From positions 26,288,001 through 26,352,000 of the forward strand of contig OZ360232.1 of NCBI GenBank assembly GCA_977017645.1: a DNA stretch of 64,000 nucleotides, written 5' to 3'. This DNA is from Torpedo marmorata (taxonomy: Eukaryota). This document shows, in pieces, positions 680 through 17,309 of the stretch; the stretch's first letter is position 1, and each line of letters begins with the position of its first letter. Under the pieces are notes generated by a model. The model was given only the letters and a program-made list of their open reading frames with translations. It was not told where the DNA came from and ran no database searches. The position numbers and the translations under genes are program-made.

Positions 680-2300
680 TAGAAGAGAGTTCCATGTCCC
701 CATGATTAATGGGCCCCCTGCATAGCCCCGGCCGAGGTGAGGAGAACCCTATCCAAGTTGAACCCACACAAGATGGCGGGACCAGACAATAAAACTGGTT
801 GGGTACTGAAGGACTGCACAGACCAACTGACGGTAACGGAGGTCCTTACAGACATCTTAACACGTCATTCCAGCGTCCATCGTCCCCATGGGTTTCAAGA
901 CAGCCACCATCATCCCAGTACCAAAGAGGGGGACAGTAACAGGCCACAATCACTTCAGCCCCATGGCACTAAACTCCACCATTATGAAATGCTTTGAGCG
1001 TCTAGTGATGGAATGCATCAAAGCGCACCTCCCAGAGACACTGGACCCATTTCAATTCACCTACAGATGGAACAGTACCACTGATGATGCTATAGCCTTG
1101 TCCCTCCACTCTGTCCTGACCTACCTGGAGAACGACACCTGATACGCTAGTCTGCTGTTCATCGACTACAGCTTGGCGTTTAGTATGATCATTCCACACA
1201 GGATGGTGGAGAAGCTGTCCTCACTGGGACTCAACACCCCTCTCTGTAACTGGATTCTGGACTTCCTAACAGAAAGACCACCGTCTGTCCGGGTCGGTAG
1301 CAGAACGTTGAGCACCATCACGCTGAGCACTGGCGCACCTCAGGGCTGTGTGCTCAGCTCGCTCCAGTTCACACTACTGACCCACGACTGCAATGCCAGA
1401 AGCAGCTACAACAGAGTCATCAAGTTTGCAGATGACACGACAGTAGTTGGCCTCATCAGCAACAACGATGAGTCACACTACAGAGAAGAGGAGGAAAATC
1501 TCGTGTTATGGTGCAAGAATACCAACCTGAGTCTCAACATGGACAAGACAAAGGAGATGATTGTGGACTTCAGGAGGACTAGGCACGACCACCCCCACTA
1601 CACATCAATAACTCTGTAGTGGAGAGAGTAGAGAGCACCAGGTTCCTTGGAGTCCACTTAAGTAGTGACCTATCCTGGACACACCTCTCCTCATTTGTCA
1701 GGAAGGCGTAACAGCGACTGCACTTCCTGAGAAGACTGAGGAGGGCAAGGCTAATGGCCACCATCCTGCCAACTTGCTTCAGGAGCTCTATTGAGAGCAT
1801 CCTGGCTGGCTGCATCACAGAGTGGTATGGTTGCTGTAGAGCATTGGATCGGAGGTCAATTCACTGGACCATAAGAGCGGCAGAGAGGATCACTGGGGTT
1901 TCCCTCCCCCCCCCCCCCCCCCCATCGACGTGATCTACCGGGATTGTTGCCTGAAGAGGGCTTGCAAAATTGTTAAGGACCCCTCCCACCCCACACACAG
2001 CATCTTCCAATTACTCCCGTCAGGAAAGAGATCCAGAAGTATCAGAGCAAGAACCACCAGACTGAGAAATAGCTTCTTCCCACAGGCAGTGAGACTGCTG
2101 AATGACTGATGAATTGCTTATACAATCGCTCTGCGACTCTACTATTTATTTAACAATTGTTTTTATTTTTATATATGTACTTCATATAACTCGCTTGTAA
2201 ATATGTGTGCAATGTCTATGTATGTGTTTGCAAGACCGAAGAAAGCTGTTTTGCCTAGCTATACTTATACAATTGAATGATAATAATAATAAACTTGAAC
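680..2300 (+). mobile_element. Rex1/Babar LINE, 5'-truncated, degenerate RT, nested insertion
   Basis: ORF pieces [48 protein letters not shown]; ends in aataaacttgaac tail; several stops and frameshifts. Confidence 0.92.
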
Positions 2301-2730
2301 CAGCTGCAAAGCATTGGACAAGAAGTCAATACACAGGCTCATCAAAACGACTGAGAAGATCACTGGGATCTCCCTTTCCTCTATTGACGACATTTACCGG
2401 AGCGTTGCTTAAATAGTGCTCAAACTATTATAGAAGACCTTTCCCATCCAGCACACAGTATCTGACCCACTACCTTCAAGAAAGAGGTACATACAGGTGC
2501 ATCAAAATCAGGACTGCCACGCTGGAAAATAGCTTCTTCCTGCAGGATGTGCAATTGATGAACAGTGTCCTCTAACCAAGTAGCAAGCCATCCCAAAATA
2601 TTTATGTATATTTATTTTAAGTTATATCTTTATGTACATATGTGATTATTATGTACTGTGTGTAGCATGGTCCGAAGAAACACTGTTTCATTGGGTTCTA
2701 AATGTACAGCTAGATGTTAATAAACAAACT
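2301..2730 (+). mobile_element. Rex1/Babar LINE, 3' part of the element begun at 275
   Basis: cagctgcaaagcattggac continues WYG-SCKALDKKSIHRLIKTTEKITG, then HPAH and NSFF motifs and a 3'UTR. Confidence 0.8.
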
Positions 2731-2829
2731 TCCGCAGGTGTCAGTGATAAGAAGGCATTGAAAATAATACTACTGAGACAAGAGCAGAAGAATGCAAGCC
2801 CTTAATTTTCATCTGACATTCTCCTGTAA

Positions 2830-3210
2830 AGTTGTGTATGAACAAATAATGAGAAGCAGGAGGGACTGAGCAGGATAGGCAACATTCATGGAGAGAAATG
2901 ATCAGTCAACGTTTCAGGTCAGGATCCTTTTCTGAGACTCGGAAGGGAAGGGGAGATGTCAAGCATAAAAAAGAGGAAAAGGGAAGGGTGAAACTGGAAC
3001 AAACACTTAAAATTCTGAGGGGAAATAAAACAAGGAAAATCCATTGCTCTGATCTCCCTCTTGCTAACTGATAGTTTTGAGGGTGGGTTTCGAGAAAGAG
3101 TCCCACCCAGAAATATTGACTGAACATTTCTTTCTTTCTATGGATGCTGCCTGACCTTCTGAGTTCCTCCAGCTTCTATTTATCTGCTCAAGATTTCAGC
3201 ATCTGCATTT
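2830..3210. mobile_element. Old Penelope-like element end in inverted (fold-back) arrangement
   Basis: gatgctgcctgaccttctgagttcctccagc on + near 3143-3173, with a degenerate reverse complement near 2853-2933; same family as 14665, 34167 and 57552. Confidence 0.55.
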
Positions 3211-3469
3211 CTAGCCTTTCAATGGTTGTGAGGCTTCACTGTCAAAGTTGTTCCTCAGTAGTGAGCTGTTCATCAGTTCCCCATGTCTAAGGCTCTTTAT
3301 TTAAGATATTATGAAGACAGATGATTAGCTTATTTTCAGGGTCATTACAGTAGCAGAAAGTGTTTAACTTTAAAGGAAACACTTCATTAATTGACAAAAG
3401 CTGAACTTGAATGATGAAACTAAATGTACGTGCCACAGTGGAGATAAGGCCTTGGAGAGAGTAGCGGGT

Positions 3470-13549: not shown

Positions 13550-14451
13550 AGCCCACTGATCTACTCACTCTACACCCATGACTGTGTGGCTATGCAAAAT
13601 TCAAATGCTATCTACAAATTTGCCAATGACAACATAGTTGTCAGCAGAACCACAAACAGCAATGAGAAGCATACAGGAGGGAGAAAGATCAACTAGTTGA
13701 GTGGTGACACAACAACAACCTTGCACTCAACATTAGCAAAACTAAATAGATGATTGTGGACTTCAGGAGGAAATCAGGAGAACACGACCCAGTCCTCATT
13801 GAGGAGTCAGCAGTGGAGAGGGTCAAGCACTTCAAATTCCTGGGTGTCAACATCTCCAAGGATCTGTACTGGAGCCTCCATGTTGATACAGTCACGAAAA
13901 AGGCTCGCCAGCGGCTATACTGTGTGAGAAATTCGAGGAGATTCAGTATGTCAGCGAAGACTCTCGAAAACTTCTACAGGTGTACCGTGAAGAGCATTCT
14001 GGCTGGTTGCGTCACTGCCTGGTATGGAGGCGCCAACTCCCAGGACAAGACTAAACTCCAGAGGGTTGTTAACTCGGCCTGTGACATCACGGGCACCAAA
14101 CTTCACTCCATCGAGGACAGCTACATGAGGTGGTGTCTTAAAAAGCAGCCTCTATCCTCACAGACCCCCACCACCCAGGCCATGCCCTCTTCACTCTGCT
14201 TCCATCGGGAAAAAGGTACAGGAGCCTAAAGACGACCACTCAGTGGCACAAGGACAGCTTCTTCCCTGTTGCCATCAGATTCCTGAATGAATAATGAATC
14301 ACAGACACTGCCTTACTTTGACTTTTTCTTTTTCTTGCACTATTTTTATTTATTTTGTAAGGTGGTTTACATAAATGTTTGTTTGCACTGTGATGCTGCA
14401 GCAAAACAATGCATTTCGTGACATGTTCATGACAATAAATTCTGATTCTGA
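13550..14451 (+). mobile_element. Rex1/Babar LINE, 5'-truncated (~0.9 kb)
   Basis: YTHDC; ORF 13750-14229 MIVDFRRKSGEHDPV...; near-identical to 4165-5044; tail aataaattctgattctgaa. Confidence 0.93.
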
Positions 14452-14664
14452 ATCATATCAGAATTATAAGTTTACATCTATCAGGAAAGGCTGAACATGG
14501 TATGCTTGTTGTACCCAGAACATAACAGACTACAAAGCGATCTGATATTTGGAAGTTAAACTGGGTAGCTGAAGAGTTTTAGGTAGTCTCTTAAAATCTT
14601 GCAGGGAATTTAAAGGAACCTTCTCCCCCAAATAATGGCCTGAATCTGGAGACCCGAGTCATAA

Positions 14665-14883
14665 GTGCAATGCCTAAAAGTGCTGCAGAAACTCAGCAGT
14701 TCACGCAGTGTCTATAGGAAGCTGTCCCTGCCTGCTTCTTGCTCATACCGTGACGAAGAGCCCAGGCCCAAAATGTTGGTTATATCCCTTTGCTTCCTAT
14801 GGACACTGCATGTCTGCTGAGTTTCTCCAGCATTTTTGTGTATTGCACCACAATAACAACGTCTGCAGACTTTCCTGTTTGAC
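14665..14883 (+). mobile_element. Penelope-like end, fold-back form, with degenerate hammerhead-like motif
   Basis: Inverted arms 14665-14722 and 14792-14848 flank gtgacgaagagcccaggcccaaaatgttgg; 3' end tctgcagactttcctgttt as in sister copies. Confidence 0.7.
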
Positions 14884-14974
14884 CCTCGTTATTAGGATTG
14901 TTTGACAGAAACTGCATGGATAGATTAAGGTAGGATAAAGAAAGCTGATTGGGTGGATCTCATCTGACAAAATA

Positions 14975-15772
14975 CATTGGACAACAATTTCTTTCATTAG
15001 GTTTGCTTCCTGAATAAAAATGGGGATTATGTTAGACAACTTCAAGATTAACACAAAGAATATTTCAGATTTGCTGTATCACGTATGAAGTTGGAGAAAC
15101 ATTAAATTAACTTTTTATTGAATTTAGCATGTTTAATCGCATAATAATGCTGGCACATTGCGTTCATTCAACTGACATAAAAATGTTTTGTCGCTGATTT
15201 TCGTTTGTACTCTGTATCTGATGCCACTCATGCCAGTGTCCATCAATAGTCGGCCAGCATTGACGGATTTCAGTTGCCCTGATACCGCTTTTCCATGGTT
15301 GTAATATCATGGTGAAATCTTTCACCATGTTCATCACTGACTGCACCAAGATCAGCAGGGAAGTACAAATGCGAATGCAGAGAATGAATTTTTAATGACA
15401 TGTTTCAGTTCATGATTTTGTATGCTTGAAGCATGTTGCCAATCAGCTAGATGTAGTTTGGTGCTCTGTATTTGCCAAGAAAATTCACAACAACATCTTT
15501 AAATGCCTTCCATGCTATTTAGGCCTAAAACAACATTTGTATAGCACCTGCACTGAGTGCATGCCCAGGCCTGCTTGGATTGACCAAAGCAGCTTGCTTT
15601 GTGGGCAATATACTAGTAGGCTGAAAATATGACAGGAAATCACAAAATTATGTAAAATCTAAAAAAAATGGTATGTGATAGGAAAATTTTAAGGTGATTT
15701 TCGTGATCAGCAGCTCAAAATGCATACAATACACCCAAAAGTGTTCAGGAAGCAAATTCTTCGTTTCCAGTG
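14975..15772 (-). mobile_element. Internally deleted Chapaev3-like (CMC superfamily) DNA transposon
   Basis: Termini CATTGGA.../...TCCAGTG, 3-bp TSD ATA (14972-14974 and 15773-15775), shared subterminal TTTGCTTCCTGAA, transposase remnant inside. The family name comes from my recollection of motif and TSD, not a search. Confidence 0.78.
15180..15519 (-). pseudogene. DDE transposase C-terminal remnant (Chapaev3-like)
   Basis: Hand translation: IAWKAFKDVVVNFLGKYRAPNYI*LIGNMLQAYKIMN*NMSLKIHSLHSHLYFPADLGAVSDEHGERFHHDITTMEKRYQGN*NPSMLADY*WTLA*VASDTEYKRKSATKHF; several stops, so absent from the ORF track. Confidence 0.85.
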
Positions 15773-15914
15773 ATATCTGTCAAATCTGTGGGCTGCGGAA
15801 CAGCTACATTGGATCCAGAGCTACATTATGAACTACTGCTTCCCCAGGTTTACAGCAACTATTGACGAACGGGGAAGTGGACTACACCAAGCTGTGATGG
15901 CATCTTCATCAAAT

Positions 15915-16150
15915 GGGCGGCACGGACAGCGCCAGTGATCGGGACAGGGGTTCGAATCCCGTGCTGTCTGTCAGGAGTTTGTACGTTCTCCCCGAGTCTG
16001 CATGGGTTTTCCGTGGGGGCTCCGGATTCCTCCCACCGTTCAAAACGTACTGGGGGTGTAGGTTAATTGGGTGTAAATTGGGCAGCATGGACTCGTGGAC
16101 TGAAATAGCCTGTTACAGTGCTGTATGTCTAAATTTAAACATTTAAAAAA
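15915..16150 (+). mobile_element. tRNA-derived V-SINE (HE1-like)
   Basis: gggcggcacgg head, B box ggttcgaatccc, V-domain, AT-rich taaatttaa tail. Confidence 0.85.
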
Positions 16151-16703
16151 ATCAATCTGGTGGGATAGAAAAGCTCAGAAGCAAGAACTGTTTTTCCTTA
16201 AATGCTTCTTTCAAATTTATGGGCAATCCCATGGAAACCAGGCAAAAATTCCTGTTGAATGATCAATTCACATCAACAAGAACCAAAAAACAGCAAGAAT
16301 AAAATTCATCTTAGCCAGTTATCCAAAATACCCCAGCAGTTTCAAACTGAATGCTGAAAAAGAAAACTTCTCTGTCTTGCTATCTTTCGTCATGAATAAT
16401 TTCTCCCAATTTGTCTCTTTTTAGAGTGCAGATCACATTGGAAAAAGTCCAACAACAGGCAAAGAATACAAAGACTATAGGAAATAAGCCTCAAAAAAAA
16501 GGCAATTGGACCAGCAAAAGGCATCCACAAGAAGACTGAGAAACCAAATTTATAAAAGAGGCGATTGTATCAGGTTAACGAATAAAAAGTTCCATTAGAG
16601 GGGAAATTAAATTGAACATTGTTGAGAAATCATATACGTAAAGATCATGAACTTGAAAGGTAGGGAGGGGCCAGCTTGGAATTAACTTGGCTGAACAAAA
16701 ATA

Positions 16704-16950
16704 CAGTAAACCCCCAGTATCTGGTCACCAGCCAGTAAGTCCAACGAAACTAGCAACCCTTATGTTGGTAGATGCCGGATAACTGAATTTTCTGGTTGCT
16801 TGAGATTGCGTGTTGTGTGGATTGGCAAATTAACGGCGAGGTGCACCAATTTTAAACCTGTCTTTTTTACCTATTTAATTTTCCGCGATTTTATTGCCAG
16901 CTGCTTGAGGCTGCTGGTTGCTTGAATTCTGGATAACAGAGGATTTACTG
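16704..16950. mobile_element. Tc1/mariner (Tigger-type) MITE with an internal templated insertion
   Basis: TA-CAGTAAACCCCC...GAGGATTTACTG-TA; body matches 6858-7074 except 16725-16769. Confidence 0.88.
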
Positions 16951-17309
16951 TAATAGTTTTAAATTAAATGTAGTGCAACAGTGGCATACTAGTTTCATGC
17001 ATGTAATCTGCTTTCATTAAGAAGTAAGTAAGGCAAGGTGTATAGCCATATTGGAGTTTTTCCTGATGATTTTTGCATGGACAAATTTGTCAAGTTGAAC
17101 CCATTGAAGGACCAGCACATCAGTCTTACAGCAGGCATTGCTGTTCATGATTAGCTAGCATATTCTAGCATATTAGAATAAACATGTGAATGTTAATGAA
17201 CTTCACCCTGACTTTATTGACCTTAACTATCAATGAGCATGCATAAATTTGCAAATTCCTCAAATATCCAATCATTAATTACAAGGACTGGCAACAGAAG
17301 AGAACTGTG

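Follow-up and report, generated by a model that had tools for sequence, protein, structure and literature searches.

Unequal spacing of shared end motifs, about one helical turn, in a dead Torpedo marmorata transposon and in most of the related Chapaev3 families examined

Does a difference of one DNA turn between the two ends of a transposon reflect a rule of end pairing, or is it an accident of one decayed copy? The question is raised by an element at positions 14975..15772 of the window, by which we mean the whole stretch of 64,000 nucleotides of Torpedo marmorata DNA that was analysed. The origin of the 12/23 rule of V(D)J recombination is debated, and an earlier note on this DNA had read the ends as a heptamer and an inner motif with spacers of 9 and 20 bp, an 11-bp difference suggestive of a 12/23-like rule. 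In this study, we show that the element is a dead copy of a 2.3-kb Chapaev3 cut-and-paste transposon, which lies on the minus strand and has undergone an internal deletion. It is laid out as follows:

14972..14974, no strand: TSD, ATA (family norm TWA)
14975..14985, plus strand: 11-bp tip of the long end (element 3' end), CAT where the consensus has CAC
14986..15001, plus strand: long spacer, A/T-rich, 16 bp (20 bp counting from the 7-mer)
15002..15014, plus strand: box 1 of the long end, the family-specific 13-mer TTTGCTTCCTGAA
15046..15054, plus strand: box 2 of the long end, decayed in this copy; cross-family type GCTGAW-C-AA
15077..15085, plus strand: box 3 of the long end, TATCACGTA
15177..15520, minus strand: C-terminal ~115 codons of the transposase, decayed, with the H(4)H motif, SDEHGE and internal stops
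15520..15521, no strand: junction of the 1,500-bp internal deletion relative to the full-length L141
15672..15680, minus strand: box 3 of the short end
15703..15711, minus strand: box 2 of the short end, GCTGATCAC
15744..15756, minus strand: box 1 of the short end, a perfect inverted copy of 15002-15014
15757..15762, minus strand: short spacer, 6 bp
15763..15772, minus strand: tip of the short end (element 5' end), 10 bp, base 8 of the 11-bp tip missing
15773..15775, no strand: TSD, ATA

The features on which the earlier note had built were all present as it described them, namely CATTGGA at 14975 followed by 20 bp and the 13-mer at 15002-15014; CACTGGA, 9 bp and the perfect inverted 13-mer at 15744-15756 at the right end; ATA on both flanks; and the transposase remnant KIHSLHSH...LGAVSDEHGE on the minus strand. 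The chance of a perfect inverted 13-mer match near both tips was computed as ~6e-5. Moreover, boxes 2 and 3 share the +10 register of box 1, lying 62 and 72 bases (box 2) and 93 and 103 bases (box 3) from the tips. Beside the element, window positions 14665-14848 hold nested inverted repeats with arms of 35 nt and 21 nt, a ~184-bp imperfect palindrome belonging to a different abundant repeat (6,765 candidates). The segment at ~15910-16130 resembles a tRNA-derived SINE, and ARAGORN found no tRNA gene in window 14000-17000.

Full-length parents of ~2.3 kb were found by protein search, one of which (L141) has an open frame of 567 aa. The window copy is the parent minus 1,500 internal bases, with the short end 5' of the gene and the long end 3', and the deletion takes out the start codon and about 450 codons relative to L141. 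The L141 frame encodes a DDE transposase carrying CFIC, LHIKLG, HFLHSH and SDEHGE, and so has the motifs C(2)C, LH and H(4)H, which, with the termini and the TWA TSD, define Chapaev3 in the available part of PMC4079192. The family consensus has CAC...GTG termini at both ends, with CAT at one tip of the window copy. By its termini, TWA TSD and motifs the element is, on sequence criteria, a Chapaev3 transposon in the sense of that source, as the earlier note had supposed. The 2.3-kb parent locus has one ORF of 150 aa or more and no RAG2-like gene. The L141 copy itself (1080-3361, G000:C1578) has no matching TSD in spite of its open frame, its long spacer is shortened to 17, and there are several substitutions at conserved sites; the frame may be open by chance or duplicated. 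Searches of Pfam returned no family for the C-terminal part of the transposase, and two scans of viral contigs returned no relatives. The Merrow, Garfield and Conan elements described in the accessible part of PMC4079192 are alike in their CAC...GTG termini, their TWA TSD after an A, their size (~2.3 kb), their ~560-aa transposase with C(2)C, LH and H(4)H, and their deletion-derived non-autonomous families. The Torpedo element differs in tip and box-1 sequence and is therefore another family, of which the window copy is an ordinary member.

In the 6.2-Gb genome there were 7,065 candidates for the element, 40 of which were scored; the short-end pattern has 4,240 exact matches genome-wide, and element copies number in the thousands. 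The short-side spacer, counted from the 7-mer, is 10 in 29 of the 30 best copies and 9 in the window copy alone, because the latter has lost tip base 8 by a private one-base deletion. The long-side spacer is 20 in 16 of the 29 scored copies and 21 in nine, five of which have common flanks and are duplicates. Of 90 non-redundant long ends, 52 have a spacer of 20 and 17 one of 21, and genome-wide pattern counts are 4,851 for a spacer of 20 vs 1,359 for 21 (reversed-pattern controls, 1 and 47). With family spacers of 10 and 20, the ends therefore differ by 10 bp, not 11. The spacer measurement across copies which the earlier note had proposed thus bears out its fixed asymmetric pair, but the pair is 10/20 and not 9/20. 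The tip common to both ends is 11 bp long, CACTGGACAAC, so that the true gaps are 6 and 16.

When elements were sampled by one end only, a partner was found within 1.5 kb for 19 of the 30 short and 20 of the 30 long anchors, and it was of the opposite type in 39 of 39 cases, 21 of the 60 anchors having no partner within 1.5 kb and one element being counted from both sides. The TSD is 3 bp long and reads TWA in 49 of the 60 anchored ends (ATWA in 42), ATA being a variant of the window copy; it is identical in 27 of the 39 paired copies. Deletion subfamilies of ~600 bp and ~800 bp carry the same ends as the full-length parent. Mean copy identity to the consensus is 95% (~5% divergence), and that of the window copy 91%. 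The long spacer has drifted after insertion, 38 of 90 differing from 20 in the Torpedo genome. Long-context ends with a short spacer, produced by an exact 10-bp deletion of the long spacer, occur four times genome-wide in elements of differing internal structure. Three of the four have a visible short partner; two T runs in the long spacer permit such a deletion, as seen in three of the four cases. These short/short accidents probably arose after the family died, and their failure to spread is for that reason weak evidence.

The asymmetry extends well beyond this family. Of 493 related loci from a scan of metagenome contigs, 80 were retained; grouped with the Torpedo family at 80% DNA identity, they fall into 32 clusters. 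Tips were located by a tip-only profile, which gave 25 automatic pairs; four were dropped as false tips (L079, L098, L127 and L133), five were added by eye and two came from the Torpedo genome, and the outcome was 16 families with both tips. Seven further loci from genome-assembly contigs contributed three new families with both tips, for a total of 19. Seventeen of these have unlike ends, short plus long with an offset of ~10 bp, two are long/long and none is short/short. Fourteen are short-5'/long-3', with transposases 41-69% identical among them and a box-1 offset of 10 in 14 of 14 representatives (one a tie). Three held-out families, whose polarity is reversed with the long end 5' of the gene, gave offsets of 9, 10 and 10 (p=0.002 each, vs 500 shuffles); L240 and L241 gave no such offsets when the scan was limited to the first 45 bases. 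Two multi-copy families scatter, with offsets of 8-12 over 7 paired loci of one and 8-10 in the other, in which three of four paired loci lacked a significant full-range offset; in both, a +10 copy was chosen as the representative. The polarity of the ends relative to the gene is flipped in at least three separate places of the tree (L240, L241, L242, L095), as might be expected if recombination between the long imperfect ends inverted the interior; L095, which resembles Conan, shows one end only. Seven loci (L239-L245) are Chapaev3 elements on short stand-alone contigs in seven bacterial genome assemblies. They are likely contamination from eukaryotic DNA, and claims of bacterial Chapaev therefore need care.

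The ends consist of up to three motif boxes over ~100 bp, the first of which differs by family. Between the two ends of one family, box 1 agrees at 9.9 of 13 bases, vs 5.0 of 13 when different families are compared, so a family-specific motif is followed by both ends at a fixed gap; the stretch between the boxes is barely alike (0.45 vs 0.37). Boxes 2 and 3 lie ~63-74 and ~94-101 from the short tip and 10 further in on the long end; leave-one-family-out comparisons, in which some scores were low, placed them at 0 in the short ends and at +10 in the long ends, in each case for 13 of 14. Both are conserved across families from different samples, with cores that are short and palindromic or read ACGT. 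The A/T content of the long spacers is 92% for the first 10 bases vs 68% further in. The one-turn asymmetry noticed in the window copy is thus fixed in the Torpedo family and present in 17 of 19 families. The earlier note had itself cautioned that one old copy might owe its spacers to a chance indel. This caution was justified for the 9-bp value, which is a private deletion. As the source of the 10-bp offset, however, a chance indel of no function in one copy or family is refuted by the cross-family result. The offset is fixed across thousands of copies and recurs in 17 of 19 families, whose box-1 sequences differ, and we give this reading next to no credence.

The two symmetric families bear directly on whether unlike ends are obligatory. 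The L068/L128 family has near-perfect terminal repeats of 230 bp and is long/long; in L068 (2339-4494) and in L128 the 3' long end, including the gene tail, appears to have been copied to the 5' side. The flanks of the two loci differ, and L068 has the TSD TAA/TAA. Since this family is sister to the short/long L063 (tree support 99), its symmetry is derived. The second, L085, has terminal repeats of 670 bp and the TSD TTA/TTA, and is classed as long/long because its inner motif lies 10 bp further in than at the short end of its relative L241. With two of 19 families long/long and flanked by matching TSDs, a strict form of the 12/23-like rule that the earlier note had entertained is not supported. 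A possible case of the opposite kind is the lamprey Merrow consensus, which reads as short/short in Fig. S6 of PMC4079192 (our reading of the figure); this may be real, or may be an effect of the removal of gap columns described in the methods of that paper, as far as these are accessible. The Merrow-type end pattern had no match in the Torpedo genome, and the ends of the Merrow-like contig L089 are identical but lack their tips.

These exceptions could point to an account in which phase alone matters, the ends being bound separately and the boxes needing only the right face of the helix, so that any whole number of extra turns works and the asymmetry is an inherited accident whose conversion needs a rare exact event. 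That long/long families exist and have moved, that a short/short Merrow consensus is printed, and that offsets cluster at 0 or 10 all agree with it, and polarity flips by inversion of the interior would preserve unlike ends without selection. Yet unlike ends have been kept in 17 of 19 families across 41-69% protein identity, both readable symmetric cases are long/long, and not one of the 19 families is short/short although two T runs make the exact 10-bp deletion possible. We consider this account somewhat unlikely.

With respect to the protein, the structure model used was that of a relative, P0006, which is 81% identical to L141 (mean pLDDT 87.6). All 13 Foldseek matches of this model at E<=0.001 are RAG1, and model residues 174-551 align on RAG1 460-1007 with Z 18.8 and rmsd 3.5 over 364 residues; Z scores were 17.6 for HzTransib, 16.6 for BbRAGL, 11.4 for the P element and 9.3 for Hermes. 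Sequence searches of solved structures found nothing significant, so the link to RAG1 rests on fold. The core of the Chapaev3 transposase is predicted to be of RAG1/Transib type, and the RAG1 likeness that the earlier note had seen in the remnant is borne out by this modelling. The C(2)C and H(3-4)H motifs common to Chapaev, Transib and RAG1 were already known (PMC12730594, available part), and Chapaev3 is placed beside Transib and RAG1 in the accessible portion of PMC4411706. No structural match to the RAG1 nonamer-binding domain was obtained in a comparison that barely extended to model residues 1-171, the best matches spanning RAG1 459-1008, and the GRPR/K nonamer-binding motif is absent before the core in P0006 and L141. 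At the position of the RAG1 nonamer-binding region there is instead a disordered acidic linker (147-164), with a Chapa zinc finger N-terminal to it; residues 11-140 form a confidently modelled N-terminal region, and by eye the Cys/His pattern of L141 and P0006 matches the N-terminus of Garfield_BM. The accessible text of a 2026 preprint links the Chapa zinc finger to the N-terminal zinc-finger domain of RAG1 and reports no functional data for Chapaev.

A rule of the strict 12/23 type, in which only short plus long ends are cleaved by way of a RAG1-like nonamer-binding dimer, would draw on the one-turn offset in 17 of 19 families and on RAG1 being the closest solved fold. We nevertheless judge it very improbable, as the long/long families have TSDs, the GRPR/K motif is lacking before the core, box 1, which varies by family, is no A-rich nonamer, and there is no RAG2-like gene, RAG1 alone reportedly having no preference for 12/23 over 12/12 (PMC8355894, available text). 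The heptamer and nonamer reading likewise gives way to an 11-bp tip, a family-specific inner box and two further boxes; the family tip CACTGG-CAAC does not correspond to a CACAATG/CACAGTG heptamer, nor is it followed by an A-rich nonamer.

We favor, with a probability of roughly 0.55, a transposase that would build a lopsided paired-end complex favoring short plus long ends and tolerating long/long, with the offset kept by selection. The core would read the 11-bp tip, and box 1 would be read by another module, for which the N-terminal Chapa zinc finger on its disordered acidic linker is the most plausible candidate; the extra turn would keep the boxes on the same face of the DNA, and the A/T run of the long spacer may help the long end to bend. 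Long/long ends would be tolerated, and short/short ends appear to be rare. Spacer length slips easily in dead copies but stays near +10 across families, which argues that it was selected while the elements were mobile. At both ends box 1 differs from family to family, and for this reason it is probably read by the transposase. The latter point also weighs against the idea that the inner boxes, boxes 2 and 3 in particular, are bound by host factors, and that the offset serves the geometry of host proteins. The conservation of boxes 2 and 3 across families and their short palindromic or ACGT cores would suit this idea, and we take them to resemble bZIP/bHLH sites, but a box 1 that is family-specific and common to both ends is what would be expected if the element's own diverging protein reads it; we rate the idea as hardly probable. 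The asymmetry could also persist through the rarity of end replacement rather than through selection.

The lopsided complex that we prefer would make unlike ends a preference and not a requirement, as in piggyBac. According to the available part of PMC7351741, native piggyBac needs left and right ends in cells, long/long excises and short/short is inactive. The likeness lies in common boxes at unequal distances, in the partial function of long/long, and in a separate cysteine-rich dimer which makes the complex lopsided; piggyBac is in this sense a functional analogue for a permissive rule. However, piggyBac belongs to an unrelated superfamily with a TTAA target, and its ends differ by a 17-bp insertion plus a duplication and not by one clean turn (same source).

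Among Chapaev3 elements themselves, our reading of Fig. S6 of PMC4079192 places TTTG at one end 10 bp beyond the 7-mer in Merrow, Garfield and Conan, and about 20 bp beyond it at the other end in Garfield and in the Merrow of tuna and of dragonfly. The Garfield ends read 20/10, and the two Merrow ends differ by 10 in tuna and by 9 in dragonfly. The accessible main text makes no mention of end asymmetry, with 0 matches to 'asymmetr', 'TIR' and 'RAG'. The closest parallel outside the group is Transib, in which Transib5, Transib2_AG and TransibN1-N3_AG have CAC-initiated bipartite ends, one about a turn longer, alongside long/long families (PMC1131882, available part). In Transib, however, five families are asymmetric and most are RSS23-like at both ends, whereas in Chapaev3 asymmetry is the norm (17 of 19); Transib has a CACAATG heptamer and an A-rich nonamer where Chapaev3 has a family-specific box 1 and three boxes (PMC1131882), and the canonical Transib TSD is 5 bp and not 3 bp (2026 Transib preprint, accessible text). 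The RAG-like transposons PflRAGL-A, with a 10-bp asymmetry (bioRxiv 2023.08.20.553239), and AanRAGL, with 4/13 spacers, a 9-bp asymmetry and a 13-bp tip plus inner element (PMC9435367), are comparable in the size of their asymmetry. Both have RAG2-like genes and 5-bp TSDs, and PflRAG1L-A a GRPR/K nonamer-binding domain, none of which is present in Chapaev3 (both sources in their available parts). V(D)J signals share the CAC start and the one-turn difference, and RAG1 shares the predicted catalytic core, but the spacers are 12/23 with a conserved nonamer, a strict rule and RAG2, in contrast to 6/16 from an 11-bp tip and symmetric exceptions in Chapaev3.

A 2021 review states, in the text available, that outside RAG such asymmetry was known only in some Transib families (PMC8355894), and it has also been published for AanRAGL and PflRAGL-A in the accessible parts of the papers cited above. 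In the accessible parts of papers that name Chapaev3, we found no description of end asymmetry or boxes in Chapaev3, and the accessible parts of PMC6004678 and of the 2026 Transib preprint hold nothing on an end offset in this group. The group-wide end design is therefore apparently undescribed. The available table of PMC3014272 gives Chapaev3 TIRs as 11-19 bp; in the families examined, such TIRs are tips of tripartite ends ~100 bp long, a point relevant to annotation and to any vector built on them. Moreover, since Chapaev3 offers natural short/long and long/long families together with intact ORFs, the question of pairing is directly testable. If this single-gene sister group has a one-turn offset by default, then the asymmetry either predates the split of Transib and Chapaev or evolved twice on the same fold. 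It is conceivable, although we hold it to be unlikely and offer it tentatively, that the one-turn asymmetry is a pairing preference ancestral to Chapaev3, Transib and RAG, which in Chapaev3 a single protein would impose by means of its Chapa zinc finger, a homologue of the N-terminal zinc-finger domain of RAG1, with neither RAG2 nor a nonamer-binding domain. If true, Chapaev3 would offer a natural and minimal model of how the 12/23 rule originated, and the ancestor of that N-terminal domain of RAG1 would be given a role in DNA binding.
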